The position numbers and the translations under genes were made by a program. The notes under the pieces were generated by a model. That model saw nothing but the letters and a program-made list of their open reading frames with translations, was not told the DNA's origin and searched no databases. From Actinomycetes bacterium (GTDB taxonomy: Bacteria; Actinomycetota; Coriobacteriia; Coriobacteriales; Eggerthellaceae), in NCBI GenBank assembly GCA_023403475.1, contig JAEYEL010000189.1, positions 1 to 59,387 of the forward strand: a stretch of 59,387 nt of DNA, written 5' to 3'. Below, piece by piece: positions 15,238-32,549 of this stretch. Each line of letters begins with the position of its first letter. Position 1 is the first letter of the stretch.

Positions 15238-17499
15238 TCATTCCTGGATTTTCCAAGCGAATGGCCAGTTTGCAGGTTGGGGCTTTTCTTTGAGCGCGGG
15301 GAGGCTGCTCACTATTTCGAGGGTTTCCATGGAGACACGCACCACTCGTTTTACGAGGTCGACGATATAGCGCGGGTCATCGGAATAATCGTTGGGGTCG
15401 TTCACGATGCCCGATGGCTTATCCGTGCGAACTTGATAGCGATCCATCAACCAGCCGATGGCGCTCTTGCCATTCACCACGTAATCGTAAGCTCGAACGG
15501 GAATATTGCGCAACGTAAGGTTTTCCGCAACGCGCAGCACCGTCACGTCCTCGCCTTTAGGGTGCTCGTCGTCTTTCGCGCATTTGCCGAAATGCATCTT
15601 TTCGGTGCGCCCGGGGTTAGCGCTATCGCCTTCTTCGACAATGCCCGGCCACGGGTCGATCATCTCGTAATTCAAGTGCAAGTTAGCCAAAGCGCGACCG
15701 GCAATCGCAAAGCTTGCAAAGTCTTCGGCCAAGGGAATGCGTGGAAGTTCTTTCTTGAGGTTCGCTTCGAAGCGCGTGCGGTATTCCTCAGAATGAAGAA
15801 TGCCGTATATGTAGTAGAATATATCCTCCTTGGTCAGCTCTGGCCCTCCGTCTTTTTTGGCACGCGGTTTTCGCCCATGACGCGCGCCGAACGCACCGGG
15901 ATAAACAGCGCGGAAAACATGCAACGCCTCGTCAGTTATGGCATCATGACGGATGTAGGCGCACTGCGATTGATCGTCCCCCAAACGCATCTGCTCGCCG
16001 CTCTGTGCGCCGAAAAGAGATTGCTGACCGTTATCGCCCACAAGCTCAGGAGAGTCAGCCTCTTCATACCAATAAAGAGGGAAGCATTGGCCATGATGGA
16101 TGAGCTCAAGATCAGGGAGATGATCGGTCACCAAACAACCACGCTCCGACACGCTTATCACTAAATTCCCATAGCAACGAGAAGAGTGTTGCTGGTAGGT
16201 CATTTCGACCCCGCCTTTTTCCGCCAGCATCGAAGAGACCATGGGTTGCTGGTAGGTCCTTTCGTTCATTACGCGGTCGTAGTAAACCCATTGCTTACAG
16301 AAAGGTCGATATGTGCCGAGTCGAACGCAAGATTTATCGTATTCGAGCAAATTGCATTTACCCGCAAAGTCGAGCATGCGACGCGTCCAACTGAAACGCT
16401 CTGTATCGTATCGTACCTTACGTTTCTCCTTTTTCGCCACCTTCATTTCGGCATTCATTTCCGACATCAGTCTCTCCATGTTTGCAGCAACGGAAGCATC
16501 GGAATAACCCCAAGCCCATGGGTCACGCTGCGTTTTCAAACCCGAAGACCAGATTTCAAACATACCAAGAGGAGGCTTCCTCTTTTCGATTCCCATCGGG
16601 GCAAAATCGTAAAAGGAATCATCGCGCTGATTAAGCCAGTCTCCATGGCGATCAGGAACAACCGTGACCCATTCGTCTGTCTTCTCGTAAGCAGCCTCAC
16701 GCACAATAGAAAGCTTCTGCTCACGAGAAAGATAGTCGCCGACATCGTAATAACGAATAGAACCATGATCGATGGAATTGGGATTCTTCACCAACATAGT
16801 TATAGCGATAGGAGCCCGAGAGCCAGACCCAAAAATCTTGCCACCCTCTTTTCGGGATTCTTCTCCCTGTGTGCGTTGGTTTCCCCGCAAGTGGAACACC
16901 CATATGCTGCTAAACTCGTCCGCAAGGCATTTCCTCATGCCGCTCATCGCCTGACCATCCACCCATCCTGCATTGCTGACGAAGCAGATAACGCCTTTGT
17001 CACCAACACGGTCGGACGCCCACCGAAAAGCACGGATATAGGAATCGTAAAGTGAGTTCTTGTTCGTAGCATCGGTTCGAGCAGCGTACGTTTCGGCAAT
17101 GCGAGCATCGAGCGAAGGATAATTCTCGTTCGCATTGTTGTCATTTGCATTCTTCTGTCCGGCGGAATACGGGGGGTTTCCCACGATGACCCTAATGGGA
17201 AGCTTGTTTTGGGCTAATACGCGCTCGGAATTCTGGGTGAACACCTCGGTGTCAAGGGTATCCCCCTCTTCCGTCATCTGGAACGTGTCGGTCAGTACCG
17301 CTCCTTCAAAAGACACGTATTCCCCGCCCATGCGGGCGTGGTAGGCTTGCTCGATGTTGATGGTCATGATGTAGTATGCAAGCAGCAAAATCTCATTGGA
17401 ATGCAATTCGCACTTGTATTTATGCGGCAGCTCTTTGTCGCTAATGATATCGGATGCTATAAGCTCGGCCATGAACGTGCCCGTACCGGCGAACGGATC
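15238..17499 (-). pseudogene. Type ISP (LlaGI/LlaBIII-like) RM enzyme, C-terminal half (methyltransferase + target recognition domain)
   Basis: DPFAGTGTF (motif I), VGNPPY (motif IV), YRPF, KELPRIP, YVVNGKSAIGW; starts abruptly at the attL core. Confidence 0.9.
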
Positions 17500-17525
17500 T
17501 AACAAAATGCCATCTTTGATACAAA
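17498..17525. other. attL: TC core + 7 bp + 19-bp arm
   Basis: TC taacaaa atgccatctttgatacaaa. Confidence 0.9.
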
Positions 17526-17637
17526 ACGACACCCCTTCGCGCAGGGGTGTCGTCTCCTGGCCCAGGGGTGTCGAAATTTCCCAAAGGGGTGTCGTTTTGG
17601 TCAGTGGGGGTGTCGGAATCACGGATCAGGGGTGTCG
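17522..17637. repeat. Left-end array: five (A/G)GGGGTGTCG copies at ~21-bp period plus one inverted copy
   Basis: Copies at 17543, 17564, 17585, 17606 and 17628; inverted cgacacccct at 17527. Confidence 0.92.
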
Positions 17638-17742
17638 CTTTTCCTTTTAGGAGATGCCTGCTCGGCACCAGATCGCGAATCAAAATCGCAGCAAAACACG
17701 TTTTCTTATTCACAATAAGTTTAATGACTAGCATTAAACTTA

Positions 17743-17771
17743 TTGCATTCCGCATTATATTGCTATAGAAT
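17743..17771 (+). promoter_or_regulatory. Putative sigma70 promoter of the DUF2975 operon
   Basis: TTGCAT-17 bp-TAGAAT. Confidence 0.5.
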
Positions 17772-17807
17772 GACCGAATCATCGGATAACTCGTGAAAGG
17801 AAGGCAA

Positions 17808-18380
17808 ATGGAGAGGCTGAACAAGATAGCCCAAGTGGCCGCCGTCGTATTGGAGGTCGTATTCTTCGTCGCGCAGGGGCTGCTCCTGCTCGCGTTCCTA
17901 GCGTCGTTCATCTACCCCGACGGCATGGGAGCGTTTGTCGGGGATATCTCGGATGCCCGCTTCGAAAGGGTCGAGCTCAACGGCTTCGGGATAAACGTGG
18001 CGGCAAACGGCCAGATCCTTTGGGGACAGATGCGAATAGCCCTCATCTGCGGCTTCATAACGAGCGGCCTCATGGCCATGGTTTTCCGCAACGTGTCCCT
18101 CATCTTCAAAACGACCCGCGGCAAGACGTGGTTCTCGCAGGGAGAGACGCCGTTTCAGAAGGACAACGTGCGCATGGTGCGCGAGATAGGCATATTCTGC
18201 ATATCGGTGCCCGTCGTGGCGGAGGCCTTCAACATCCTGGCTGCCGCATGCTTCGGAGCGGATGTGACGGACGGCGCGGTGTCAATAAACGGCATCATCC
18301 TGGGCGTGCTTGTGCTCTGCCTGTCGCAGTACTTCGCCTACGGCATGCAGCTCCAGCGCGAGACCGACGGGCTGGTGTAG
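17808..18380 (+). CDS. DUF2975-family membrane protein
   Basis: Four TM segments, TPFQKDNVRMVREIG, FAYGMQLQRETDGLV; followed by a YozG-like HTH. Confidence 0.82.
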   Translation: MERLNKIAQVAAVVLEVVFFVAQGLLLLAFLASFIYPDGMGAFVGDISDARFERVELNGFGINVAANGQILWGQMRIALICGFITSGLMAMVFRNVSLIFKTTRGKTWFSQGETPFQKDNVRMVREIGIFCISVPVVAEAFNILAAACFGADVTDGAVSINGIILGVLVLCLSQYFAYGMQLQRETDGLV

Positions 18381-18383
18381 GCC

Positions 18384-18614
18384 ATGGGCAGGATCAAGCT
18401 CACCTTGAACGTCATGATGGCGCGGCGCGACATGTCGCTCAACGAGCTCGCCGAGCGCGTGGGGATAAGCCAAGTGAACCTCTCGAAGATCAAGAACAAC
18501 CACGTGACCGCCATCCGCTTCTCGACGCTTGCGGGCATCTGCGAGGCGCTTGACTGCACGCCGGGAGACATCTTGGAATACATTCCTGAAGGCGACGGAG
18601 CGGAAAGCGAATAA
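18384..18614 (+). CDS. YozG-like XRE HTH regulator
   Basis: LAERVGISQVNLSKIK...AIRFSTLAGICEALDCTPGDILEY. Confidence 0.9.
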   Translation: MGRIKLTLNVMMARRDMSLNELAERVGISQVNLSKIKNNHVTAIRFSTLAGICEALDCTPGDILEYIPEGDGAESE

Positions 18615-18775
18615 TCGGGCGCGAGTGCGATTTGCCGCGCTGAACAGGCTCTCGTAACCAGCGGTTGCCTTGATCTCCGAGAATTAGCATCCGCAGGTTG
18701 GTGGCATGCAACGCCCCGGTGCCCTAGATTCGTCCATGCCGGCACATATGGACGAACGATACAAAGGAACTAATC

Positions 18776-19798
18776 ATGGCATTCAGAGAGAATCTGCTGC
18801 ACCTTCGTGCGGCGAACAACATGACGCAAGAGGCGCTTGCGGCCCGCATCGGCGTGAGCCGCCAGGCAGTGGCGAAGTGGGAGTCGGGTGCATCCACGCC
18901 AGAGATGGAGAAGCTGCTCGCCTTATGCGAGCTCTTCGGATGCACGCTCGATATCCTCGTGACGGGCGACCTCACCGCCGAGCAGCCTAACCCCTCGCTC
19001 GCGCAGAAAGGACAGCCGTCCGACCTCTTCGGCTACGACGAGCTCATGCGCACGTTCGACTGGAAGATCCCGACGGGTGTGGCGCTCATCATATTGGGAG
19101 TTGCCTTCTGCGCGCTGTTCGGCGGATTGTCGGATGCCGGTGTCTTGGCTGAGAACATAGCCGCAGGATTCGGCGTGCTCTTCCTCTTCGCAGGCATAGG
19201 CTCAGGCCTGGCGCTCATAATTCCGGCAGGGCTTGCGCATTCGGCATTCGTGAAAAAGCACCCTTACTTAGAGGACTTCTATACGGAGGCGGACAAGGCG
19301 AATGCGCGGTCCCAGTTCGCCCGAGAGTTCGTCTTCGGCATCTGCCTTATTTTCCTGGGGATAGTTCAGGTAGTCTTCTTTGCCTCAGGTGCCGATGAGG
19401 CATCCATAAGCGATGTCTTCCCCGCCTTCTCCATGCTCGTCTGCATAGCGGTCGGGGTCTGGCTCATCGTGCATGGTGCGCTCATCTTGGGGCGCACGAA
19501 CATCGCCGAGTACAACAAGGAATCCGCAAACGAGGTGAGCCTGTCCGACATAGACAGCGCGAATCTGACGGACGAGCAGCGAGCCCGCGTCCTTGCGCTC
19601 AAGCACGAGAGCCGAATTGTGGGGTCTGTATGCGGATGCATCATGATCGTGGCGACTATCATTGCGCTCAGCATGCTGTTTGTACCTATGGGCAAAGGCG
19701 ATGAGGTTTACGAGTTCTTCTGGCTCCCTTGGCTTATCGGCGGCCTTCTCTGCGGCGCCGTAACGCTGATCTTGAAGGCATGCGGTAAAGCAGATTGA
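18776..19798 (+). CDS. XRE HTH regulator with multi-pass membrane domain
   Basis: TQEALAARIGVSRQAVAKWESG followed by about six hydrophobic helices. Confidence 0.85.
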   Translation: MAFRENLLHLRAANNMTQEALAARIGVSRQAVAKWESGASTPEMEKLLALCELFGCTLDILVTGDLTAEQPNPSLAQKGQPSDLFGYDELMRTFDWKIPTGVALIILGVAFCALFGGLSDAGVLAENIAAGFGVLFLFAGIGSGLALIIPAGLAHSAFVKKHPYLEDFYTEADKANARSQFAREFVFGICLIFLGIVQVVFFASGADEASISDVFPAFSMLVCIAVGVWLIVHGALILGRTNIAEYNKESANEVSLSDIDSANLTDEQRARVLALKHESRIVGSVCGCIMIVATIIALSMLFVPMGKGDEVYEFFWLPWLIGGLLCGAVTLILKACGKAD

Positions 19799-19801
19799 TG
19801 C

Positions 19802-20131
19802 GCAGAAGCAATCGACGCATCGAATGCGTGCATGGCAAGCCTCACCAAAGACGAGTGGGATGCCAAAGAGCTTCTGGAAGAGGCCATCAAGGTGCAGCTT
19901 CGCATCGCAGTGGCGACAGGCGACCCGAAAAGCGATGAGGCGCAGAAGCTGGCACGTATGCACAAGAAATGGATAACGATCCACTGGGGCGAGGGTTACC
20001 CGATTTTGGAGTACATAGGAGCAGTCAGGGGATATCTGCAAGACCCCCGGTTCATCGAGTACTATGACTCGGCGGCAGGCGAAGGGGCGGCGAAGTTCCT
20101 CGCCGATGCCGTGGAGACCGCATACTTATAA
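19802..20131 (+). pseudogene. TipAS-like antibiotic-recognition domain, probably a 5'-truncated MerR/TipA gene
   Basis: DPKSDEAQKLARMHKKWI...YLQDPRFIEYYD...GAAKFLADAV; TipA-like coding (AEAIDASNA) continues upstream of ATG 19832 to the previous stop. Confidence 0.65.
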
Positions 20132-20138
20132 TGTTCCC

Positions 20139-20264
20139 ATGAAACAAATGATAAGAGACATGAAACCAAGCGAATACCCCTTGCTCAAGGACTTCCTCCT
20201 CGATGCGATATACATCGGTGACGGAGCGGACGAGACCGAGTGGATGATAGTTCGGAACCTTTAG
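20139..20264 (+). pseudogene. GNAT acetyltransferase remnant (internal deletion)
   Basis: MIRDMKPSEYPLLKDFLLDAIYI resembles a GNAT N-terminus, joined directly to a short C-terminal-like tail; 41 aa. Confidence 0.45.
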
Positions 20265-20373
20265 CGAGTGAAACCACTGGCTCTGGACGGTACTGGCATC
20301 CCGTCGAAACGGGCGTGTGGCTCCATGCGACCCCGCGTCACCAAAATAATCTCAAAAAAGTTCGTGAAAACCC

Positions 20374-20404
20374 TTGCTCGTGACGCGGCGTCGCATTGTA
20401 GAAA
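20374..20404 (+). promoter_or_regulatory. MerR-type promoter/operator
   Basis: TTGCTC-19 bp-TAGAAA with spacer dyad GTGACGC-g-GCGTCGC, directly upstream of the MerR gene. Confidence 0.7.
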
Positions 20405-20426
20405 CGCATGCAGGAGGTGAAAAGCC

Positions 20427-21203
20427 ATGGATGAAAACAAATACACAACCGGAGAGCTGGCAGATGCATGCGGTACCACGGTGCGCACCGTCCAATACTA
20501 TGATGGCAAAGAGCTGCTCTCGCCTTCAGGATATACGGAAGGAGGAAGGCGCCTGTATACGTTGTCAGATGCGAAGCGGCTGCGCCTTATCCTCATGCTG
20601 AAATCCTTGGGGCTTGCGCTTTCGCAGATCAAGGGCGTGCTTGAAAGCCCGAACAGCGCAAGCATCCTAAGCGCCCTTCTCGATGAGCGCGAACAGGCAA
20701 TCGTCGAGGAGCAGAAGCGGCAAAACGAGGTGCTGGGCACCATACAGGAGCTCAAGGCGAACATCCTGCTTTCCGGCGATCTCAAGACGTTGGCCGACAC
20801 ATCCATGGCAAAACTCATGGAAGATGCAAAAGCAAGAAAGCGTTGGCATGGATTGATGATCCTGCTCGGCATCGTGATGGACGTGCTGTGGATCGGAGCG
20901 CTTATCTATGGGATAACGAGCGGCATATGGTGGCCGTTTCCCGTAGCACTTGTGATAGTCGCTATTCTAGTGCTTTGGATGGTGTGCCGCTACGATTCGC
21001 ACGTGACATATCTCTGTCCCGCCTGCGGTGCGCAGTTCCGCCCGCGCCTCGGGGCATTCTTCGTCTCGCGCCACACGCCCAAGACGAGGAAGCTCACCTG
21101 TCCCTGCTGCGGCGAGAAAGACTGGTGTGTGGAGCACTACCATGCGAAGCGGGTCGACATCGCATCGGGCGAATGTCTGCCGGGCACATGCAATAGAAGC
21201 TAG
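20427..21203 (+). CDS. MerR-family regulator with TM helices and C-terminal zinc ribbon
   Basis: YTTGELADACGTTVRTVQYYD, GGRRLY; two TM helices; CPAC...CPCC. Confidence 0.88.
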   Translation: MDENKYTTGELADACGTTVRTVQYYDGKELLSPSGYTEGGRRLYTLSDAKRLRLILMLKSLGLALSQIKGVLESPNSASILSALLDEREQAIVEEQKRQNEVLGTIQELKANILLSGDLKTLADTSMAKLMEDAKARKRWHGLMILLGIVMDVLWIGALIYGITSGIWWPFPVALVIVAILVLWMVCRYDSHVTYLCPACGAQFRPRLGAFFVSRHTPKTRKLTCPCCGEKDWCVEHYHAKRVDIASGECLPGTCNRS

Positions 21204-22768
21204 AGTTCGCTGCCGTCCTTGAAGGTGACGGTAATGGTGCCGTCCTCATGCACGGTCGCGAAGTCCACGATGGCATGCCACAGGCGCTCGTCGAATTTTG
21301 CCACAACGTCGGGAGCGGACTCCATGTCGGCTATGAACACATCGGCATCTGCACGGGCGGCCGCTCTCCTGGATATCTCCGCATCCGCCTCGGCGAGCGC
21401 GGCCTCGGCCTCCTCCGCGCGCTTCACGAGCGCGTCGTAGCGGCGGCGGTAGTCCTCCTGGTCGAGGGCGACGCGGGCGTTCTCGGCGATGCACTTGTCG
21501 ATGAGGGCGTATGATGCCTCGACCTCCGCGCGGAGCACATCCCGCTCCTCCTCCAGAGTTGCCGTCGCCAGAGCGGCATCCATGGCACGGCGCAAGGCTG
21601 CGCAGACCTCCTCGCGCTTCGGGAGCAGCTTGTTGACAGCCTTGACGAAGGCTTCTTCCAGCTCCTCCTCCGTCACGTGCGGCGTCGGGCAGACCTCGCC
21701 CTCGAACTTTCCGTTGCACTGCCAGATGACGCGGCGGTACTTGTCGTTGGAGTGCCATACCTTGGGGCCGTACCATGCGCCGCAGTGGGCGCACTTGACC
21801 TTCGAGGAGAAAGGGGACGCGCAGCTTCTGTAGCCTCCCCGCGAGCGGGCTGACACCTCGCGCTGCGCCGCCTCGAAGACGGCCGGTTCGATGATGGCCT
21901 CGTGGTCGCCCTCGACGTAGTACTGCGGCACCTCGCCCTCGTTCACCTTCTGGCGCTTGGTGAGGAAGTCCACCGTGAACCGCTTCTGGAGCAGGGCGTC
22001 TCCCTTGTACTTCTCGTTTGTGAGTATCGACTTCACGGTGCCCTGCACCCACTTGCCCTTGCCGCCTGGGGTGGGGATGCCGTCCTCTGTGAGCGCGACG
22101 GCGATGGCGCGGTAGGTCTTGCCCGAGAGGAACATGGAGTAGATGCGGCGCACCACCTTCGCCTGCTCGGGGTTGACGACGAGGCTCCCGTCCTCGCCAC
22201 GGTCGTAGCCGAGGAAGCGCGAGAAGGGAACCGTCACCTTGCCGTCGGCGAACCTCTTCCGCTGGCCCCATGTGCAGTTCTCCGAGATCGAGCGGCTCTC
22301 CTCCTGCGCGAGCGACGACATTATGGTGAGCAGGAGCTCGCCCTTGCCGTCGAAGGTCCAGATGTTCTCCTTCTCGAAGAAGACCTCGACTCCCGCCTCC
22401 TTGAGCGAGCGTATTGTGGTGAGGCTGTCGACGGTGTTCCTGGCGAATCGGGAGACGGACTTCGCGACGATGAGATCGATATCGCCTGCGAGGGCGTCCG
22501 CCACCATGGCCTTGAATCCCTCGCGGCGCTTGGTGGACGTGCCCGTTATGCCCTCGCCTGTGTATATGCCTGCGAGCACCCAGCCGTCGCGCTCCTCGAT
22601 GTAGCGCGTGTAGTAGTCCACCTGCGCCTCGTAGCTCGTGAGCTGCTCCTCGTGGTCGGTGGACACGCGGGCATATGCCGCCACACGGCGCACGGATGCG
22701 GCTCCAACCGGGGCTGCGGTGAAACGCTGGCGGGTCGCGGGTATGGTGGTGACGCGCCTACTCGCCAT
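21200..22768 (-). CDS. Large serine recombinase (integrase)
   Basis: AAYARVST catalytic Ser, KSVSRFARN, LAQEESRSISEN, ILTNEKYKG, CAHCG zinc ribbon, coiled coil; 522-aa open frame. Confidence 0.95.
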   Translation of the reverse strand: MASRRVTTIPATRQRFTAAPVGAASVRRVAAYARVSTDHEEQLTSYEAQVDYYTRYIEERDGWVLAGIYTGEGITGTSTKRREGFKAMVADALAGDIDLIVAKSVSRFARNTVDSLTTIRSLKEAGVEVFFEKENIWTFDGKGELLLTIMSSLAQEESRSISENCTWGQRKRFADGKVTVPFSRFLGYDRGEDGSLVVNPEQAKVVRRIYSMFLSGKTYRAIAVALTEDGIPTPGGKGKWVQGTVKSILTNEKYKGDALLQKRFTVDFLTKRQKVNEGEVPQYYVEGDHEAIIEPAVFEAAQREVSARSRGGYRSCASPFSSKVKCAHCGAWYGPKVWHSNDKYRRVIWQCNGKFEGEVCPTPHVTEEELEEAFVKAVNKLLPKREEVCAALRRAMDAALATATLEEERDVLRAEVEASYALIDKCIAENARVALDQEDYRRRYDALVKRAEEAEAALAEADAEISRRAAARADADVFIADMESAPDVVAKFDERLWHAIVDFATVHEDGTITVTFKDGSEL

Positions 22769-22940
22769 CGCGCTCCGCCTTCTTCTTAGCCCAGGCCCTC
22801 TTCATGGCCTCGCTCATGCGCCGCTTCTCAGCATCCGTGCGCGGCCGTCTGCGCCTGGGGTCTTGGTAGGCGCTCTGTATCTCCCGGCCGTCCTTCAGAT
22901 GTATCGTCATGCTTCCGTGGTCTATGCCGATATGGTCGAT
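22758..22940 (-). pseudogene. 3' remnant of an upstream (second recombinase-like) gene, truncated by IS3
   Basis: IDHIGIDHGSMTIHLKDG, then frameshifted TDAEKRRMSEAMKRAW...DGE* overlapping the recombinase start. Confidence 0.55.
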
Positions 22941-22979
22941 TGACCTGTGTCAAGATTTCGGACACGGAAGCTCGAGGAA

Positions 22980-23857
22980 TTAGGCGGCCATGGGAAGCAC
23001 CTTTGATTCTGGCATCGTCCGCTCGAAGAACGATTCCATGGCTTTCGCGGGTATCCGGTAGCCGATGGTGGAGTGCGGCCGCCTGCGGTTGCAGCCGGCC
23101 TCGATGAACCCGACGACGGCGTGCTTGGCGTCGGCCCTGGTGGCGAAGCTCCTGCGATAGTACATCTCGTTCTTCAGGGTCGCGAAGAAGGACTCCGCAA
23201 CGGCGTTGTCGCGGCAGTTTCCGGTGCGGCTGCAGGAAAGCCGCACGTCGTTGGCGCGCGCCCGCTCGGCGAGCGTCCTGCCGGTGTATTGGGCGCCCCT
23301 GTCGCTGCAGAATATGGCGTTTCCGGCCACGTAGCCGCGCGACTTGGCCGACTCGAGCGCCGCCGCCCGCGATGTCGGCGGTCATGCGGTCCGAGAGCGA
23401 CCAGCCGACCACCATGCGCGCGCAGGTCGATCACCGTGGCCAGGTACAGCCATCCCTCGCCGGTGCGCAGGTACGTGATGTCGCCTGCGAGCCTGCAGGT
23501 GGGAACGGGGCTGGTGAAGTCGCGGCGCACCGGGTCGGGGCGCGGCTTCGCCTTGGGGTCTGGGATCGCGGTCCTCTTCTTGGCGTTGGGCGCGCGGCCG
23601 CGTATGCCCGGCCCGCGCATCAGCTTCAGCGCCCTGTAGCGCGCAAGGCGGCGGAAGTCCGGCGGCGGCATCGCGTGCGCGAAGCGGAAGCCGAACCTGC
23701 GGTCGGGCTCCGGCCGCACGCGCATCACCGCGTCGCGCTCGACGGCCCAGTCGTCTTCCGGGCAGCCGTTGGCCAGCCGCGAGCAGAGGCTCGAGCGGCT
23801 CACGCCGAGCACGCGGGCCATCAGCTTCACGGGGAATCCGGCCTTCTCCGCCAGCAT
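22980..23857 (-). pseudogene. IS3 orfB DDE transposase, frameshifted
   Basis: GDITYLRTGEGWLYLATVIDL and SDRGAQY...DNAVAESFFATLK lie in different frames. Confidence 0.85.
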
Positions 23858-23874
23858 GAGCCGGTAGCGTGCGG

Positions 23875-24159
23875 CTACGCCTGCTCCCCGGCGAAGAAGG
23901 CCGCCGCTTTCTTCGGGAACGCGTTCCCCGTCTCGAGCTCGCGTATGCGCTTGCGCGCCTCGCGCAGCTCGCGGTCCTCGGCCTTCGGGTCGGGGTGGTC
24001 GGAAAGCTCCCGCCTGCGCTTTATCACCCATTGGTTGACCGTTTTGGAATTGAGGCCCAGTTCCCTGCAGCATTCCGAGATCGGCCTTCCCGTCGAGATC
24101 ACGTAGTCGGCGGTCTCGCGCCTGAACTCGTCGGCGTGCTTGGCGGCTGGGTTGGCCAT
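23875..24159 (-). CDS. IS3 orfA HTH protein
   Basis: EFRRETADYV...RELGLNSKTVNQWV...KKAAAFFA. Confidence 0.85.
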   Translation of the reverse strand: MANPAAKHADEFRRETADYVISTGRPISECCRELGLNSKTVNQWVIKRRRELSDHPDPKAEDRELREARKRIRELETGNAFPKKAAAFFAGEQA

Positions 24160-24244
24160 GCTCGCCTTCCTTTCGTCGTCGTTGGTATGCATTCTAGATG
24201 ATTGGCTCCTCTAGCATGCGTGTCCGAAAGAACGATACAGGTCA

Positions 24245-24561: not shown

Positions 24562-24564
24562 GGC

Positions 24565-24775
24565 GCGCCTCCTGTCTCTTCTGGAGACGGAGGCGTCGCG
24601 GGTGCGCACGAGAAAAGGGCGGTCGCAACCGGACGGGTTTCACTCCGTCTCTGATTGCAACCGCCCTTTCGGTAGGCCGTCGCTTTTTTGCCTTCCCTGC
24701 CCGAGCCCGAAACTGCCCTAGGTGCGCCCGTGCAGGCTTATGTGTTGCGGGTGGTTTAACGTCATACCCAGGACG
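24565..24775 (-). promoter_or_regulatory. Structured 5' leader: pseudoknot, terminator-like hairpin and SD-sequestering hairpin
   Basis: CGTC-CTGGGTAT-GACG-TTAAAC-CACCC; GAAAGGGCGG...CCGCCCTTTTC; GCCTCCGTCTC...GAGACAGGAGGC. Confidence 0.55.
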
Positions 24776-24789
24776 GCGTCAGCCGCGAG

Positions 24790-24972
24790 CTAAACGCTCG
24801 CGACGCGGATGCCTTGAATCTCGTTGAAGAGGTCGGACAAGTCGCACTCGTCCATGGCCTCAAGAACACCGCCGTAACGCTTGACGGCAGCTAAGGCATC
24901 CTGGTAAGACTCGATGTCCTCAATGAGGTCGAGTTCGAATTGGATGCTGTATATGAAGTCGTTAACAGTCAT
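24790..24972 (-). CDS. Small acidic hypothetical protein
   Basis: 60-aa ORF MTVNDFIYSIQFELD... with plausible composition. Confidence 0.4.
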   Translation of the reverse strand: MTVNDFIYSIQFELDLIEDIESYQDALAAVKRYGGVLEAMDECDLSDLFNEIQGIRVASV

Positions 24973-25230
24973 TAATCCCACCAACCAAATCACTCTTCGT
25001 TCTGCGTTTGAATCCAAGGTACCGAGGAGGGATAGGCCGTCGTTAGGGCTCGGCGTTGAGAAAAAGTTGAGAAAAAGTTGGAGCCATTGGATAGGGACGG
25101 TTGGAAGGGATTTCGCAGCCTGTGCGCGACCAAATGTGGATATCGAATTCACATTTGTGCATTTCATATATTTCTGAATGAACCCGATTGCTAAAATTGA
25201 GACAGCAATTGATGGATCTACTTCAAGGGG

Positions 25231-25440
25231 TTGAAAGTGTCTTTTAGCTACAAGAAGCTTTGGAAGTTGCTCATCGATAACGACATGATGAAGAAGGATT
25301 TGATGAAAAAGGCGAAGATTACGTCCTCTACCATGGCGAGGCTTGGGAAGGATAAGCCGGTAAGCATGGACGCACTTGCAAGAATCTGTAGCGTGCTCAA
25401 TTGCAACATTGGGGACATCGTCGATTTCGTCAAAGATTAG
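25231..25440 (+). CDS. Cro/C1-type HTH regulator
   Basis: SYKKLWKLLID...VSMDALARICSVLNCNIGDIV. Confidence 0.88.
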   Translation: MKVSFSYKKLWKLLIDNDMMKKDLMKKAKITSSTMARLGKDKPVSMDALARICSVLNCNIGDIVDFVKD

Positions 25441-25476
25441 AGTTCCAGAAGCTAGCAGGAGAAGGGAAGTCCTCGT

Positions 25477-26943
25477 ATGCGCTTGTGCTTCGGCACATTC
25501 TTCAAGCTTGCGACCCAGGCGAAGGCAGGGGGTAAAGAGTGCGACCTTTGCACGGCAATCCTCAAGTGTTCCGGTGCAGATCTTTATAATCTCACGGGTC
25601 CTGAGGCATCCCGCTTGAAAAGCGGAGCCGACAATCCTCCACAGGATGTCCTCAACGCCCTACTGGATGCCGACATCCACGATATCGCAAATGCTTTCAA
25701 AGAAACCGTCATCCCTCGCATAAAGGGAACTTGTCATAAGCCCCTCGTTCTTGCGCTCCTCAAGGTCATCGAAGAAGACAAAACCATAAGCGGTGACATG
25801 GTCGTTGGTATTGAAGGTGGATATGAAAAGAGCAAGTTGCTAAATGCCAAGTTTTTTACCTTCGACGAGTTTCTGGCAAACGTGCTCGTCTACGCCGCGA
25901 AGGATGTCCGCAACACGGATTGCAAGAAGGACATAAAGGAAATCAGGAAGGATTATCTCAAGCAGTTCAGCTCGGAGTCAGGCAACATAACCTTCGAAGA
26001 TGCCGTTGTCAGCCATTCAACCCCTTTGGAGAAGACACTGCTTGACAACGATTTCGACGAAACATTCGCGCTTGTTTCAGAGACGCATGCAGGCTTGCCC
26101 GACCGTCCGTCTTCCGTCCGCATCTACTCTTTGTCTATACAGAACGACTTATTCAGAACCAACGAGCTTAAAGAGTTAGTCTTGAAGAATCTGGGCAGAT
26201 ATGTCTTCTCGAGAGCCCGTTGCAACAATTACGCCACAAAGCAGATGACAGAAAGCCTGGTCTCAATAGCGTTGGGAAGCCTGAAAAACGACCCGAAGGT
26301 TTTGTCGGAAGGTGCAGGCTCTGTATTTGGCGAAATCCTCGTTTACTCTTTCTTGGAACACGTATTGCAGGCACCCAAGATAATGAGCAGGATTGAGTTT
26401 TCAAGTGTCTCAGGCGCACGAGCCGTACGGAGCGAAGGCGTCCATCTGGCACTCACAGGAGACGAGAACAAGCCGTTCACGCAGCTCGTCTTCGGAGCGT
26501 CCGAGGTCCTTGGGGATATTGACAGTGCCATAGACAAAGCGTTTGAGCGGGTTATGGATATCCGGGGTAACAGCAGCGGCGAGCTCCAGACGGTGGAAGC
26601 CGCAATCTCGAACAACGTCTTCGACCCAGGCACGACCGACTATCTCATCGGCCTTTTGAAGCCGTCTCGGAAGAACAGGAGGCCGGCGGAACAAGCCTTC
26701 GGCATCTTTCTCGGATATTCGGTGAACATAGACGACGAAGCTTTCCTCGACATGAGCCGAGAGGACGCGATTGTCCAGCGGGTCAAAATGGATGCCGCCC
26801 ACGCGACATCGAGAATCCGCAAACTCGTTACGGAGTTAAACCTCCAAGGACATTCCCTCTACGTATATATCCTCCCGCTCAATGACGCGCTTAGTGATAA
26901 GGAAGAGATCATGAATGACGTTTTCGAAGGGAGGGTCTTCTAA
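25477..26943 (+). CDS. hamA: Hachiman HamA-like (DUF1837) protein with N-terminal extension
   Basis: GEILVYSFLEHVLQAPKIMSRIE, EGVHL, LVFGAS, YVYILPLND; stop overlaps the helicase start. Confidence 0.72.
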   Translation: MRLCFGTFFKLATQAKAGGKECDLCTAILKCSGADLYNLTGPEASRLKSGADNPPQDVLNALLDADIHDIANAFKETVIPRIKGTCHKPLVLALLKVIEEDKTISGDMVVGIEGGYEKSKLLNAKFFTFDEFLANVLVYAAKDVRNTDCKKDIKEIRKDYLKQFSSESGNITFEDAVVSHSTPLEKTLLDNDFDETFALVSETHAGLPDRPSSVRIYSLSIQNDLFRTNELKELVLKNLGRYVFSRARCNNYATKQMTESLVSIALGSLKNDPKVLSEGAGSVFGEILVYSFLEHVLQAPKIMSRIEFSSVSGARAVRSEGVHLALTGDENKPFTQLVFGASEVLGDIDSAIDKAFERVMDIRGNSSGELQTVEAAISNNVFDPGTTDYLIGLLKPSRKNRRPAEQAFGIFLGYSVNIDDEAFLDMSREDAIVQRVKMDAAHATSRIRKLVTELNLQGHSLYVYILPLNDALSDKEEIMNDVFEGRVF

Positions 26944-29582
26944 TGGCGGCACCGCGCGCGGCCACCTTCGGCGAGGCTCTTCATTGGGATTTGGCGAATG
27001 ACGGCTACCTTCAAGAGATTTACGAGAACCTCCTGTTCAACTATGCGCTGGAGCTCTTCGGCTTTAAGAGCATCCAGAAGCGGGAAGTTGTCTTGGAGGA
27101 CGCCCTGCGCTTTGCCGACCTCCTGACGAAAACAATCGATCATGATAATCCGGATGCCGACAAGAGCTGGGCGCAGGAGATGGTCTGTCTCCTCAACGTC
27201 ACGATGCCAGAAACGCCGGCCCTCAGATACATCACCGGCAATGTGTACGCGGATGCCTCGAACTACAAGGGGCTGCAATTGGCTTCGCCTGAGTACACGA
27301 GCGCCGACCTGTTCGAATCCGCCTTCCATGAATTCGAGAAGCAGTATCTCAAGATTCCGGGAAGCGATATCGATAACGCGCAGTTCTTTCGTCCCCAGAA
27401 GGAAATCTATGAACGTATGTCCGAAGGCAGTTTCAGTTATTCGGGCCCCACATCGATGGGCAAGTCGCTGATCATGCGAACGTTCATTAAGAACCAGGTC
27501 ATAGACACGCGCGAAGAGAACTTCGCGATAATCGTGCCTACCAAGGCACTCCTCAATGAGATAAAGAGCGAGCTCATCCAGAGCTTGGGCGAGCTGCTGC
27601 AGGTCAAGAATTACCGCGTGGTCTCCTCCGCAAGGGATCTTCTCCTTGAGGGAAACCACAACTTCATCTTCGTTATGACCCCCGAACGCCTCCTCCAGCT
27701 CCTCGTTTCCCGTCCTGATATAACTGTCGATTACCTATTCGTCGACGAGGCTCACAAGATCTCATCGAAGGGAGAGCGCAGTTCCTTCTACTACAAGGTC
27801 ATAGATGTCTTATTCTCCAGGAAGCAAAAGCCGCACGTCATATTCGCGTCCCCGAACATCCCCAACCCAGAGATCTACCTCGAGCTCATACCGCCATCGC
27901 AAAGAGCAGATGTCCAGAGCATATCCTCGACCTTCGCCCCTGTAAGCCAGATCAAGCTCATACTCGATCTGGTCGACAACGAGATCAGCGTCTACAACGA
28001 CCGCAAGGCGGACAAGGACAGTTGCGGCGATGGGAGAATCAAGGTCTGTGGCATACAGCCAGGGACTCGCCTTATCCACATGGTCGAGCACATCGGCTCA
28101 GACAAGCAGAACATCGTCTATTGCAGCTCGAAAGACAAGACCATCTCGGCCGCAATCGAATACGCCAGGACGCAGCCAGATACCAAGGATCCCATCTTGC
28201 TTGCGCTGTCTAACGACATCAAGGAGCAGATACACAAGGACTACTATTTGGCCGACCTCATCAAGAAAGGGGTTGCATATCACGTCGGTTACCTTCCATC
28301 GAACATAAGGGCGCGTATAGAGGATGGCTTCAAGGACGGTCATATCCGCGCGCTGTTCTGCACGAGCACGCTTATAGAGGGGGTGAATCTTCCCGCTGAC
28401 AACCTGTTCATAACAGGAAACAAAAACGGCAACTCGAAGATGACCCAGGTGGAGTTCAGGAACCTAGTGGGACGAGTGGGCAGGATCGGCTACAACCTTT
28501 ACGGCAACGTTTTCCTTGTCAGAATGGATGATGACATCCAGGTTGAGAACTATGATGCTCTGCTCGGAGGCAGCGTCGAGCCGCAAAAACTGTCGATTGA
28601 CACGCGCCTCAGCAGTACGCAGAAAAAGGCCATCGTTGACTCGCTGATCAATCCTGATGGTGATAACGAAGTGTGGATGAACAGCAATCAAGAGCAGCGA
28701 TCACTTATGAACCGCTTCTCGATGATGCTCTCGAAAGACATCGCCGATAACCGCGAAAGCTATGTTCGCGAGAGCTTCAGGAGAGTCATGAGCGACGAGG
28801 ATGCCGATCAGATAAAAGCAGCCTTCGAAGATACCGAGCAAACCGACGACATCACCCTCACCTATGACCAAAGAGAAGGCCTACTCCAAGCCATAGACGA
28901 CGGATTGGTCTATCCAGAAGTACCCCAGGGCAAACGAATCGAGCACGACACCTTGTACGGTTTCCTGGTGAAGCTCGCCGAGGTTTTCAAGTGGGACCTC
29001 TATGAAAATAAAGGACTTGGATCCAAATCCTCCACTGGCGAATACGGAAAGCTCAAGTGGTACTCGGTAGTGCTTTCCCAATGGATGTGCGGGTTCGGAC
29101 TCAACCAAATCATTAACGGCAGCATAGCGTACAAAAAAGAACACCCCTATACAGGCGTGTGGCTCGACGGAAGGCTACGTGCTGAGACATATGACGGCAG
29201 TCCAGAACACAACAACTACATTATCGCCGATATCCTGGGGACTCTTGAGAACGTGGTTCTCTTCAGCTTGACCAACTATCTTCGCGAGTTCTCGGACGCA
29301 GCAAAGAAGCGTCAGGGAGTTGAGGAGATTGAGAATGACTGGTCCGACATAGTCGAATACGGAAGCACGGATTCCCTCGTGCAGTTCTTGCAACGAGCCG
29401 GGTTTTCCCGAGAAGTTGCTCAATACATACGCGGCCACGCATCGACTTTCCAGACCGACCAAGATGGCAACGTCAAGCTAATAGGTGATGCCCTGTTCAG
29501 CAGCGAGGACGAAACCGTAGTAGCCGAGACGGAGGATGTACATTTCAATTTCCCTGAGTTGTTCCTTAAGCCCCAGTTCTAA
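26943..29582 (+). CDS. hamB: Hachiman HamB-like Ski2-type DEAH helicase
   Basis: GPTSMGKS, VPTKAL, TPER, DEAH, CTSTLIEGVNLP, NLVGRVGR. Confidence 0.8.
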   Translation: MAAPRAATFGEALHWDLANDGYLQEIYENLLFNYALELFGFKSIQKREVVLEDALRFADLLTKTIDHDNPDADKSWAQEMVCLLNVTMPETPALRYITGNVYADASNYKGLQLASPEYTSADLFESAFHEFEKQYLKIPGSDIDNAQFFRPQKEIYERMSEGSFSYSGPTSMGKSLIMRTFIKNQVIDTREENFAIIVPTKALLNEIKSELIQSLGELLQVKNYRVVSSARDLLLEGNHNFIFVMTPERLLQLLVSRPDITVDYLFVDEAHKISSKGERSSFYYKVIDVLFSRKQKPHVIFASPNIPNPEIYLELIPPSQRADVQSISSTFAPVSQIKLILDLVDNEISVYNDRKADKDSCGDGRIKVCGIQPGTRLIHMVEHIGSDKQNIVYCSSKDKTISAAIEYARTQPDTKDPILLALSNDIKEQIHKDYYLADLIKKGVAYHVGYLPSNIRARIEDGFKDGHIRALFCTSTLIEGVNLPADNLFITGNKNGNSKMTQVEFRNLVGRVGRIGYNLYGNVFLVRMDDDIQVENYDALLGGSVEPQKLSIDTRLSSTQKKAIVDSLINPDGDNEVWMNSNQEQRSLMNRFSMMLSKDIADNRESYVRESFRRVMSDEDADQIKAAFEDTEQTDDITLTYDQREGLLQAIDDGLVYPEVPQGKRIEHDTLYGFLVKLAEVFKWDLYENKGLGSKSSTGEYGKLKWYSVVLSQWMCGFGLNQIINGSIAYKKEHPYTGVWLDGRLRAETYDGSPEHNNYIIADILGTLENVVLFSLTNYLREFSDAAKKRQGVEEIENDWSDIVEYGSTDSLVQFLQRAGFSREVAQYIRGHASTFQTDQDGNVKLIGDALFSSEDETVVAETEDVHFNFPELFLKPQF

Positions 29583-29739
29583 AAAAGTTTTTCTGACTTC
29601 CGAATAATTAAAGATGGGTGCTAACCATTCGTAGCCGTTCATGAGTTTCGTTCGACATTTCTCATGAAGGGAAGGAGCGTTTAGCTATCTGCGGAATCTC
29701 CAAATGTTATACTTTTATCTAAATGTGTCCTTTTGAGAG

Positions 29740-30498
29740 ATGGTCCATATGAGCCCACAAAGACGAACAAAAACAAGCCAAGGTCAGCAGCAACTGCTGC
29801 GGCCAAAGACGGAACCCGATTCATTAGTGGACCGTGACGAATGGATTGAAGACGCAGTAGCCGGGTTTGTAACGAAAAGCAACGCGAATCGTCAAATCTA
29901 TCGGATTATTCTGGAAACCCTATGGCCTAAAGGCCACGGTATACCGGGGCCAGTAATTGACAGGGAAGAGATCAGGAAGGCCATCAGTGAGGCAAAAGGG
30001 AAGGATTACCATGACCCTTTCCGACGCTTGCGCGAGCTACAAGGCGATGAAGGTTTCCTAGGCATAATAAAAAGCGGTCAGAAATATCAGCTGGTGCATC
30101 TCAACATTTCTCCAAAGAAACAGCCAAGAACCTCGCTATCTGACACGAATTGGAAAAAGGTACTCGAGAAGTACGGAAACGTTTGTGCTGCCTGCGGGTG
30201 TGCTCCTGATGAGAACGGCCTTCAACAAGACCACAAAGTTCCTCGAGCAAGAGGTGGCACAGACGCAATCACCAACTGGCAACCTTTATGCGACTCTTGC
30301 AATATTGACAAAAGCGTTGCCTGTAGAGGGTGTAAGAAAGATTGCACACAGTGCGGTTGGGCTTATCCAGAATACTACCGACCCATTCGCCTTTCCGGTC
30401 AAACAATACGCGACATAAACGACTATGCAGAAAAGCATCATCTGGATCCCAGCCAATTCGTGACGGAGATTGTTTACGAAGTTATCAGGCTCGATTAA
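29740..30498 (+). CDS. HNH endonuclease, probable Type II restriction enzyme
   Basis: CAACG, QDHKVPRARGG, NWQPLCDSCN and an additional Cys cluster; convergent with the m5C methyltransferase. Confidence 0.7.
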   Translation: MVHMSPQRRTKTSQGQQQLLRPKTEPDSLVDRDEWIEDAVAGFVTKSNANRQIYRIILETLWPKGHGIPGPVIDREEIRKAISEAKGKDYHDPFRRLRELQGDEGFLGIIKSGQKYQLVHLNISPKKQPRTSLSDTNWKKVLEKYGNVCAACGCAPDENGLQQDHKVPRARGGTDAITNWQPLCDSCNIDKSVACRGCKKDCTQCGWAYPEYYRPIRLSGQTIRDINDYAEKHHLDPSQFVTEIVYEVIRLD

Positions 30499-30507
30499 GC
30501 ACTCTCG

Positions 30508-32109
30508 TCATTTAGCGGTTCGATACGCATCAAGACGAGCATCGTCCAGAAGAATCATCTGCTGAATCCTTGCAATCGCAATACCTAGTGCCCGACCAAC
30601 TAATGGCGGAATTGCATTTCCGATTTGTGCGTTCCGAGGAACGTCCACACCGCGAGCTGGACCGTTCAATGTGTATCTACCGTAGAAGTGATAATCATCG
30701 GGGAAAGATTGGATACGTGCCATCTCCCTCAGCGTAATAACTCTTGGATGTTTAAAATGTATCAATTCTTCTGGAGCTGTCGTTATGGTAGAGCAAGGCT
30801 TCTTTGTATCTAGCACGAACCTTTTGTTTGAGTGACATCCGTTTTCGTATAGAAAGTCCTTGCTTAGCCTTCCTGCTGGTTGTGTTTCATGCGCCTTTTC
30901 ATATAAGGCTATTGTCTTTTTGCTATGTCTATTGAATCTATGACAGTTGGGAACTTTGCTTTTCAAGCAGTTCGCGCGCATCAGTTTTTGGTAGGCACTT
31001 TTAGCCGGCAGATACGTGCAGGTATTAAACCCTGGAAACTCCGGATCCGGAACTACATGAGATCCAGCCAAATCACCAATTGCCTCTTTCACGGTTACGT
31101 ATTGATCGGCAGATAATCCAAGTTCGATGCGTTGTTCTCGTCCGACTTCGGCAAGAACGTCTTTAAAGAGTGACTCTGCGTCCAGTTGGCCAGCAAACTC
31201 ATTAGAAACAGCAAAAAGCAAAACCCTTTTTCGAAGCTGAGGCACTCCATAATCGGCTGCGTTGATGGTCACTTTGCCGACGCTGTAACCAAGTTCTCCT
31301 ATTCTCTCAGCAGCTTCTTCAGCAACAGATCGTTTTGTCTTATCGTTAGGACGCAAGACAAACTTCTTTCCAAACCCACCGACATTTTCCACTAGTGCAA
31401 ATAGTGGCTTAGTTATCCCTATCATCTCAATTTGCTTAAAAACTAAGGAGTTTCGAGGATCGTTTCCATTCCTCGAGCCTGCAACGGAGAAGCCTTGACA
31501 AGGCGGTCCGCCGGCCAAAAGTGTGACTTTTCCAGAAAGACCTTCAAGGTGACCCCGAAGAAAGTCATTATCAAGCACATCCGCTATATCGTGTGGAGCT
31601 TTTTCCAGCCATTCAGGCCATGATGCAAAGTGGTTATACGGTGCGTCTTTTCCCACCAAGTTTTTTTCAAACGTCTTGTAAGCCATAGGGTCTTTCTCTA
31701 TGGCGAACATTCCAGACCAGCCGGCTAAACCGAGCCCAAGTGACAATCCACCACAGCCAGCAAAAATATCAATATATGTCTGCACAGATGGTTCAGCGGT
31801 AGAAGATTGGGCTTCTGCAACTTCCCCGGCAATCATCGTGTCTATTTCACGCATTTTCTTAATGACACGCTTTCCTGTTTGCGTGACTGTGTACCCGCTC
31901 TTCTGCTTATAAGTCTCAATGCAATGCGCATGTCTAAGCGTCTGAATCCAATTGTTTATCGTTGCAGGGCTGCTGCCGTACTCTTCTGCGAGAGCAGTTT
32001 GCGATAGCCTAATTACGGGAACATCTTTCATTTCGCACTGATGCTCATCAAGCCAACACAAGAAACGATATTCTTTCGCTGCAAAAGAAACTGTTGATTC
32101 TCCGCTCAT
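30508..32109 (-). CDS. dcm: DNA cytosine-5 methyltransferase with N-terminal winged-HTH
   Basis: DIFAGCGG, GGPPCQGFS, ENV, PQLRKRV, REMARIQSFPD, QIGNAIPP; first ~100 aa LSQTALAEEYGSSPATINNWI. Confidence 0.92.
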   Translation of the reverse strand: MSGESTVSFAAKEYRFLCWLDEHQCEMKDVPVIRLSQTALAEEYGSSPATINNWIQTLRHAHCIETYKQKSGYTVTQTGKRVIKKMREIDTMIAGEVAEAQSSTAEPSVQTYIDIFAGCGGLSLGLGLAGWSGMFAIEKDPMAYKTFEKNLVGKDAPYNHFASWPEWLEKAPHDIADVLDNDFLRGHLEGLSGKVTLLAGGPPCQGFSVAGSRNGNDPRNSLVFKQIEMIGITKPLFALVENVGGFGKKFVLRPNDKTKRSVAEEAAERIGELGYSVGKVTINAADYGVPQLRKRVLLFAVSNEFAGQLDAESLFKDVLAEVGREQRIELGLSADQYVTVKEAIGDLAGSHVVPDPEFPGFNTCTYLPAKSAYQKLMRANCLKSKVPNCHRFNRHSKKTIALYEKAHETQPAGRLSKDFLYENGCHSNKRFVLDTKKPCSTITTAPEELIHFKHPRVITLREMARIQSFPDDYHFYGRYTLNGPARGVDVPRNAQIGNAIPPLVGRALGIAIARIQQMILLDDARLDAYRTAK

Positions 32110-32292
32110 CGAACGCCTTCCTACAATCCTCCGGATGCACTAATTTTTTATAGGATATTGCATTTTGGAAGGCAAAGCGATGAGAACTCTGCATCCTCCC
32201 TTTATCTCCAAGATAAGCGGGCAGTGAAAAACGATGTGTATATGCGCCTTGAGATAGTAGGCAACCAGCACTCGACGAATTCACAATCTGAT

Positions 32293-32388
32293 GCACCTTT
32301 TAACGATACCTTGCACGTTTCAACGATAGCCCTACACCTTTTAACGTTTGCCCGCACATTTCAACGTTAGGCGCACCTTATAACGATA
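32293..32388. repeat. Right-end array: five 16-bp copies (GCACNTTTYAACGWTA-like), 19-21-bp period
   Basis: gcaccttttaacgata 32293, gcacgtttcaacgata 32313, acaccttttaacgttt 32334, gcacatttcaacgtta 32354, gcaccttataacgata 32373. Confidence 0.9.
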
Positions 32389-32521
32389 CGTCCGTCTAGC
32401 CGCAGACAGAAAAAGAGTATCTGGAGCCAACCCGACGCTCCTACACCCGTCCAATCGGTTGCTCTACAATGAAATAACCGCAGGTCAATCAGCATATTTC
32501 CTGCTGTCTCTTATGCTGCCC

Positions 32522-32549
32522 TTTGTATCAAAGATGGCATGATTCTTTC
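32522..32549. other. attR: 19-bp arm + 7 bp + TC core
   Basis: tttgtatcaaagatggcat gattctt TC. Confidence 0.9.

Follow-up and report, generated by a model that had tools for sequence, protein, structure and literature searches.

A small integrative defence island at the motif I aspartate codon of a Type ISP restriction–modification gene, and the target pattern shared by its recombinase relatives

A contig of 59,387 nt from a member of the Eggerthellaceae (GenBank assembly GCA_023403475.1, contig JAEYEL010000189.1, analysed at its full length and called the window below) carries a 15,050-bp element that interrupts a gene for a Type ISP restriction–modification enzyme. We consider this element to be an integrative island whose attP site recombined with an attB site inside the ISP gene, and the choice of an Asp codon as the crossover point to be a trait of the recombinase family; the probability of this reading is, in our estimate, about 80%. 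According to the mechanism that we propose, a single large serine recombinase (LSR) would mobilise the island into the chromosomal ISP gene of a high-GC host of the Coriobacteriia, and the crossover would fall on the GA with which the Asp codon begins, at the start of the S-adenosylmethionine-binding motif I (IL/DPFAGTG; here and below, the slash marks the junction). The most interesting result of the analysis is the target pattern at the level of the recombinase family.

The element occupies positions 17500-32549, has a GC content of 55%, and is bounded on either side by a TC dinucleotide. In the window sequence, the left junction reads ggcgaacggaTC/taacaaaatgccatctttgatacaaa (17498/17500), and the right junction reads tttgtatcaaagatggcatgattcttTC/cagaatatgc (32548/32550). 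The 19-mer TTTGTATCAAAGATGGCAT forms a perfect inverted repeat at the element ends (Table 1). It has two exact copies in the window and no further ones there, even if up to three mismatches are allowed; none of 100 shuffled sequences gave two matches. The spacer between each copy and the TC dinucleotide is 7 nt long, so the joined element ends are symmetric about the 2-bp core: the symmetry covers 22 of the 30 arm positions, including 19 contiguous ones. The reconstructed attP consists of two 26-bp arms flanking the TC/GA core. Identical non-palindromic dinucleotides at the two bounds and imperfectly symmetric arms within an attP of about 50 bp are the features of an LSR element. The preliminary description of this DNA had pointed to the TC dinucleotides and the symmetric ends, placed an LSR element at a 2-bp core within motif I, and regarded attP and attB as reconstructable; the recombinase domains and the junctions agree with it in all these points.

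The deletion of 17500-32549 in silico results in one open minus-strand frame of 1920 codons, which encodes 1915 aa from the MPSVTQLV start, as had been announced for this deletion. The restored joint reads GEGLGSPGVHIL/DPFAGTGTFMAELI, i.e., GVHIL/DPFAGTGTF, and these two peptide ends are indeed present at 32550 and 17499, where they had been reported. In the interrupted state, the minus-strand open reading frame (ORF) 32511-36035 reads ...GSPGVHIL and continues through 12 element-encoded codons to a stop at 32511. The ORF 15238-17622 contains 41 foreign codons followed by DPFAGTGTF.... An intact allele was searched for among related sequences. The natural uninterrupted homologue P0005, which is 79% identical, reads ...GSPGVHILDPFAGTGTFMAELIASDIIS through the restored junction, and a relative genome (G039) has a 1916-aa open frame for the intact ISP homologue; both match the restored junction. 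When the attB region is compared with other ISP homologues, 39-43 of 62 nt are identical, and the GA core is kept in all of them. The best-named homologues come from Eggerthellaceae, Slackia, and Adlercreutzia.

The domain content of the two halves points to a Type ISP enzyme. The N-terminal half (P0001) matches the Pfam profiles Mrr_cat_2, ResIII, Helicase_C, and ISP_coupler (1e-44), while the C-terminal half matches Type_ISP_C (9e-91), Eco57I, and positions 916-1639 of the REase_MTase_IIG profile. The single restored frame is thus predicted to encode nuclease, helicase, coupler, N6-methylase, and Type_ISP_C domains in this order, and the insertion parts the nuclease–helicase half from the methylase-specificity half. 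The translated halves retain the motifs of the nuclease and of the helicase, as well as NPPY, in intact form. LlaGI and LlaBIII are single-polypeptide Type ISP enzymes with an Mrr-type nuclease, SF2 helicase, coupler, N6-methylase, and specificity domain in order. The enzyme described here has the same domain order; however, it has an additional N-terminal domain of about 258 aa and is interrupted. For this domain (residues 1-258 of P0001, 35262-36035), PADLOC gives a match to the candidate family PDC-S61, and there is also a weak match to a PD-(D/E)xK domain linked to defence reverse transcriptases. It can also be noted in many ISP homologues of about 1900 aa.

It could be supposed that the contig wrongly joins the island into the ISP gene, since the source genome is a draft of 2.41 Mb in 214 contigs (95% complete). 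However, an assembly error would hardly leave the same dinucleotide at both junctions, symmetric arms, and an exact in-frame restoration, and the same architecture recurs in a complete chromosome described below. We regard such an artefact as extremely improbable.

The LSR of the island (P0003) matches the Resolvase (1.9e-30), Recombinase (6e-24), and Zn_ribbon_recom (4.7e-12) profiles, and its translation contains the serine motif YARVST. Its gene has the same orientation as the split target gene, and the genome contains no second copy. The best relatives of P0003 are 62-64% identical, with one fragment at 68%, and originate mostly from Clostridia genomes, gut metagenomes, and IMG/VR contigs. 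For the family analysis, 240 related loci were used; together with P0003, they make up 241 rows with 223 different sequences, because the collections overlap and contain near-duplicates. Most of the related loci do not extend to an element end.

Relatives that are 56-68% identical to P0003 insert at the homologous motif I Asp codon of N6-methylase genes, with the GA core on the coding strand. A six-frame scan for motif I gave 18 matches, 17 of them immediately downstream of a stop codon on the recombinase strand. Those 17 are preceded by a conserved read-through peptide, xCI[KN]xxxxx/DP, which in our element is FCIKDGILL/DP. The nucleotide pattern TGYATHAH-N16-GA-NCC was detected on the recombinase strand in 28 of the 240 loci, besides the site described here, and had two matches on the other strand. 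Twenty downstream ORFs were tested, and 18 of them proved to be N6_Mtase from exactly Pfam position 52 or MmeI_Mtase from position 25. Among the methylases encoded by these ORFs are HsdM-like and MmeI-type ones, one of the Eco57I type, one HsdM-HsdS fusion, and one methylase-helicase fusion. The two exceptions are an Amidase_3 ORF starting with DPGHGG and a chance match within a topoisomerase gene. The Asp codon of the ISP gene corresponds to position 34 of the UPF0020 profile, and its junction has the same register as those of the relatives.

With the relaxed pattern TTGTATCA-N17, 199 sites were found. The next dinucleotide is GA at 83 of them and TC at 64, and any other dinucleotide occurs at most 13 times. 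The site in the ISP gene fits this family definition, with 17 nt between TTGTATCA and a GA/TC core that belongs to the Asp codon of a conserved motif. The GA class contains 55 host ORFs of at least 60 aa, among them 24 Resolvase, 22 N6_Mtase, 4 MmeI_Mtase (overlapping), and 1 amidase. For the Resolvase ORFs, a start position is tabulated only for the first, at profile position 39. In recombinase genes (24 of 55), the Asp codon that is hit is that of Y-x-D-[ED]-G-x-S-G, and the catalytic serine region is severed. The 42 host ORFs of the TC class lie on the opposite strand and represent N-terminal halves. Thirteen of them are HsdM_N + N6_Mtase, and the four of these inspected individually end at profile position 46-51. 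The TC class also includes one N-terminal domain of a Type III methylase (L091) and one large polyvalent protein. By eye, 14 TC-class peptides end in GDNL...K.IYI and resemble the Type III match of L091. We take this ending to resemble the lead-in to a DPPY motif, and Type III Mod genes are probably among the targets of the family.

On the basis of these comparisons, it is strongly supported that the targets of the relatives include Type I HsdM, MmeI-type IIG, polyvalent methylase, and serine-recombinase genes, and that this targeting is a property of the recombinase family. The preliminary description had supposed that the integrase is directed at the ILDPF-coding DNA of a host defence gene. 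The relatives located at the same Asp codon of other methylase genes support the targeting idea at the level of the family. However, ISP genes were the target in none of the 240 loci. A tblastn search for ISP sequences revealed nothing in the first 80 loci and one weak helicase match in all 240 (L067). Moreover, the insertions into recombinase genes and one amidase gene show that the target is a conserved coding motif and not specifically a host defence gene. In the case of the amidase (L035:6534-11702), the relative appears to lie at DPGHGG of the Amidase_3 gene, Pfam position 4, which would be a target outside the usual families with a similar Asp-Pro-Gly coding context; the assignment is doubtful, as the arm paired with it differs at 4 positions and adjoins an AA core.

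Two independent elements reconstructed at both ends, and one phage record, support the same rule. In the complete chromosome to which the locus L016 belongs, GA cores and related arms flank an element of 58.8 kb, with 21 of 30 positions symmetric; removal of this element restores a 496-aa HsdM in which HsdM_N and N6_Mtase positions 4-51 are joined to positions 52-306. A 5.2-kb element (L072:6465-11646) splits a recombinase gene, and the rejoined 550-aa ORF reads YARLS...YT/DVGRTG...DLSRFGRN. The closest annotated recombinases belong to the gut phages PV036416 and PV036449 of Ca. Heliusvirales; they are 57-64% identical, and the phages have two tandem recombinase genes. The phage record in question is PV036416.1; deposited as a complete genome, it ends in MmeI_N + MmeI_hel abutting a TC-core arm (L310, 46380-47620). 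This stub of a split Type IIG gene means that the record includes host sequence. An intact attP was not found in two phage records; one of them has the host junction instead. The recombinase genes in the sister records are annotated as 'DNA invertase'. In a whole-genome search for partner arms, a usable arm was found only in a Merdibacter-type chromosome (G447), and none was found for L054 and L231. Within single loci, arms could be paired for our element and L072 and, doubtfully, for L035, and a pair in L046 turned out to be spurious; in the remaining loci, the second end falls beyond the available sequence. Fuzzy matches of the 19-mer of our element in related loci are conserved coding sequence inside elements and not att sites, and a degenerate search for the upstream junction in these loci gave mostly noise.

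Several observations weigh against the view that the Asp codon of the ISP gene was chosen by a family rule. A recognisable junction is present in a minority of the related loci: the strict test gives 24 of 240, and among the 74 loci with at least 9 kb of downstream flank there are 11. Relatives of P0003 closer than 62-68% were not found in the genome, metagenome, and viral contig collections searched, and in a 400-genome sample of the same class the best match is only 40-41% identical; the specificity of this particular enzyme therefore rests on one insertion. In addition, the arm of our element is similar to the arms of relatives that target recombinase genes (e.g., L021, 20 of 25 positions), so the ISP site could be a secondary one. 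The junction label changes 19 times across the FastTree tree of the 241 recombinases; with such scatter, no methylase-targeting clade can be claimed. P0003 is on a long branch, and its placement is unsure.

As for the fate of the ISP enzyme, the split would leave the nuclease-motor half unable to recognise its target and the methylase half without the segment that precedes motif I. Both halves would lose parts that they need, so restriction and modification would disappear together, which would not be lethal. Judging from the domain layout, the ISP function is likely to be lost. According to another explanation, expression of the C-terminal half starts inside the island and methylation by it continues, so that only restriction is lost. 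The frame of this half runs without a stop over 41 element codons to 17622, where there is a GTG; the arm encodes ...GILL before DPF, mimicking the native ...HIL, and related junctions often keep 4-70 open codons upstream of the motif. However, positions 1-51 of the N6_Mtase profile remain with the other half, the scan of 17300-18000 for promoters and terminators detected nothing, and the arms of some relatives contain stop codons (L050, L067). A functioning orphan methylase seems very improbable to us.

The components of the island were assigned from third-position GC content and from Pfam and PADLOC profiles (Table 1). The HamA (DUF1837) and HamB genes are adjacent and abut at 26943, as in a Hachiman system. 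The HNH endonuclease and the C5 cytosine methyltransferase may form a Type II restriction–modification pair, a putative assignment made from the profiles. No phage structural, replication, or conjugation genes were recognised among the element ORFs with Pfam and PADLOC, and no directionality factor was recognised in the island. The island is best described as a small, non-conjugative integrative defence island.

Table 1. Features of the island and of the split gene in the 59,387-nt window (a dot in the strand column: no strand assigned).
Feature	Position	Strand	Basis or remarks
Type ISP C-terminal half, 753 host codons	15238..17499	-	From the motif I Asp-Pro via NPPY to Type_ISP_C
Left TC crossover dinucleotide	17498..17499	.	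Coding strand GA, positions 1 and 2 of the Asp codon
Left att arm	17500..17525	.	7-nt spacer, then 19-bp inverted repeat at 17507-17525 (-)
Six GGGGTGTCG copies, directly inside the left arm	17527..17637	.	One inverted, five direct; 21-22 bp period
DUF2975 membrane protein	17793-18380	+	Pfam
Small HTH_26 regulator	18384-18614	+	Pfam
HTH_3 protein	18776-19798	+	Pfam
Stand-alone TipAS domain	19832-20131	+	Pfam
MerR-family regulator	20427-21203	+	Pfam
Large serine recombinase, 522 aa (P0003)	21200..22768	-	Resolvase, Recombinase, Zn_ribbon_recom
IS3-family insertion sequence	22941..24244	-	HTH_Tnp_1, rve_3/rve; 70% GC
HTH_26 regulator	25231-25440	+	Pfam
HamA (Hachiman)	25477-26943	+	HamA1 3.1e-115 (PADLOC); HamA 5.5e-32 (Pfam)
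HamB helicase (Hachiman)	26943-29582	+	HamB1 E=0 (PADLOC)
HNH endonuclease	29740-30498	+	Profile match
C5 cytosine methyltransferase, N-terminal helix-turn-helix	30508-32109	-	Profile match
Right att arm and right TC core	32522..32549	.	Repeat at 32522-32540 (+), 7-nt spacer, TC at 32548-32549
Type ISP N-terminal half	32550..36035	-	PDC-S61-like domain, Mrr-type nuclease, SF2 helicase, ISP coupler; ends ...GVHIL

The island would thus bring the Hachiman system and the C5-methylase/HNH pair while the ISP enzyme is lost. It can be asked whether this exchange is adaptive, i.e., whether the family evolved to hit restriction genes or genes of rival integrases, with the island supplying defences of its own. 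Restriction by Type I, III, IIG, and ISP systems depends on their methylase part as well, so knock-outs of these targets are not self-lethal. This accords with an adaptive origin, as do the recognised target classes, which, save one amidase, are all restriction–modification methylase or recombinase genes, and the defence cargo itself. However, a conserved motif accounts for this pattern with no need for selection to disarm, cells hit lethally in a Type II methylase gene would not survive to be counted either, and incoming DNA meets restriction before it can integrate. In addition, LSR targets are not enriched in or around anti-phage genes according to the available part of PMC10083194. On balance, an adaptive counter-defence is unlikely. 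A short and conserved coding motif, spread horizontally and dispensable, would be a reliable landing site in many hosts, and this appears to be the most economical reason for the choice of target, which fits the integration at a family-wide Asp codon that we prefer. More broadly, for a widespread integrase family represented both by prophages similar to Ca. Heliusvirales and by small islands, integration could serve as a conflict strategy against restriction and rival integrases, with arrays beside the arms controlling the integrases. The att sites of such a family would centre on the Asp codon of DNA that encodes catalytic motifs, and its members would insert almost exclusively into methylase genes of Type I, IIG, III, and ISP systems, where a hit abolishes restriction and the cell survives, and into integrase genes of competing elements. 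This is a tentative proposal, which we find possible rather than probable.

Directly inside the left arm, the GGGGTGTCG array gives six matches, a number reached in none of 100 shuffled sequences. Similar iteron-like arrays, defined by a 9-mer present at least three times in the adjacent 260 nt, accompany 24 of 147 arm sites (our own and 23 related ones). Most of them have a period of 19-21 bp, and the repeat sequence varies between elements (e.g., L213, L037, L039, L212, and L170). The arrays are candidates for binding sites of a regulator or a directionality factor, or for an origin.

Serine-integrase elements that split methylase genes have already been published (PMC4701971, PMC12942858); the variant described here is new. 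According to the available parts of these two papers, streptococcal integrative and conjugative elements (ICEs) with serine-integrase triplets insert in hsdM (PMC4701971), and conjugation shows one Tn1806-like ICE using hsdM, Eco57I-domain methylase, and methylase-helicase (snf2) genes (PMC12942858, 2026). A possible loss of methylase function and its excision-dependent restoration are also raised by the authors. Like the island, the Tn1806-like ICEs split restriction–modification methylase genes site-specifically. However, they are conjugative, 49-72 kb in length, and have three integrases and 4-bp flanking repeats (TGGG/GGGA), whereas the island has one integrase, a 2-bp TC/GA core at an Asp codon, no conjugation genes, a defence cargo, a Type ISP target, and a Coriobacteriia-like host. 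This distinction is drawn from the descriptions and not from the integrase sequences. The island is accordingly no Tn1806-like ICE: one recombinase was found, in the element as in the genome, and the scanned element ORFs gave no conjugation-related Pfam matches.

The available text of PMC10083194 (Durrant et al. 2022) describes many LSRs, even distantly related ones, that target one conserved intragenic site, uses a dinucleotide core, and rebuilds attB and attP from element boundaries. Its main text highlights Mg-chelatase/comM and prolyl-isomerase targets; the words 'methyltransferase', 'methylase', and 'restriction' are absent from it, and the supplementary tables may list methylase targets. 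Ca. Heliusvirales, in the available part of PMC11283538, are tailed prophages of 47-65 kb with two tandem recombinase genes, and the words 'integrase', 'recombinase', and 'integration site' are absent from its main text. They resemble the island in that the arm motif recurs in one of their records, beside a split MmeI-type gene. A literature search for a serine recombinase together with Type ISP gave nothing relevant. A family-wide Asp-codon rule or insertions into recombinase genes are not described in the literature searched, supplementary tables excepted.

Some gene-splitting serine-integrase elements act as switches, such as SPbeta in spsM and skin in sigK. The A118 prophage in comK is also described as such a switch in the available part of PMC4701971. 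In these systems, as in the island, an LSR element interrupts a coding gene that precise excision restores. However, their excision has been demonstrated and is under developmental or environmental control, whereas the scarless restoration of the ISP gene is theoretical, and the island is not a phage. A reversible switch in the manner of active lysogeny, in which excision restores the ISP gene and re-integration toggles restriction, would account for the absence of stops and frameshifts in both halves over 1915 codons and for the scarless excision in silico, and restoration of this kind has been raised for serine-integrase ICEs in hsdM (PMC4701971). On the other hand, the lack of a recognised directionality factor argues against it, as does the lack of recognised replication or transfer genes that would keep the excised circle. 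Two features of the recombinase locus point in the same direction. First, there is the IS3-type insertion sequence 173 bp upstream of the recombinase start, which interrupts an adjacent small ORF. Second, P0003 has Gly in place of a near-invariant Asp, the only such case among the 241 recombinases. Together, they make an active switch mildly less likely, and we consider it quite unlikely.

This substitution lies in the same motif at which recombinase genes are split. The motif Y-x-D-[ED]-G-x-S-G has the form DEG in 230 of the 241 family recombinases, DDG in 4, and GEG in 1, and 6 are unmatched. P0003 (GIYTGEGITG) is the sole member with Gly, while Asp is present in 234 of 241. The equivalent Asp lies near the active site of small resolvases. 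The change may mean that P0003 is impaired or that it is immune to insertion by its kin; since relatives insert at the same Asp codon of recombinase genes, protection is an equal, speculative possibility.

The terminal inverted repeats of the IS3 element are 38 nt long and 79% complementary, and its transposase is spread across three frames. The ORF that it splits is small and Cys-rich (24245-24609 and 22758-22940, minus strand) and adjoins the recombinase gene. Elsewhere in the genome, the IS3 element is represented only by a 109-nt fragment, which is 83% identical.

The ISP gene has a GC content of about 50%, as against about 62-64% for the host. It is adjoined, at 13175-15056, by an ATPase gene of the AAA_21/AAA_15/SMC_N type (424 aa) and an overlapping 207-aa ORF, with a GC content of 43-45%. 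The 207-aa ORF has no Pfam match. The two genes may represent another defence system in the same host island. The ISP/ATPase block is flanked by a Peptidase_M78 gene on one side and by hemN-like, dus, and lepA genes on the other. Given the position of this low-GC block between such flanks, the ISP gene itself already lies within a small foreign island.

From the island, the attP and attB of a serine integrase can be cleanly and fully reconstructed, and the relatives of this integrase follow a common landing rule at the Asp codon of a methylase motif. The related arms, together with the many natural attB variants, form a ready data set for learning the specificity of integrases for engineering. 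For annotation, split hsdM, MmeI-type, mod, and ISP genes beside recombinase genes may be insertion sites and not signs of decay; some genes annotated as 'DNA invertase' in gut prophages may encode integrases, and prophage records may hold stubs of host genes. As for the biology of the host, the island would exemplify defence turnover, in which one recombination event removes one restriction enzyme and brings two other systems.

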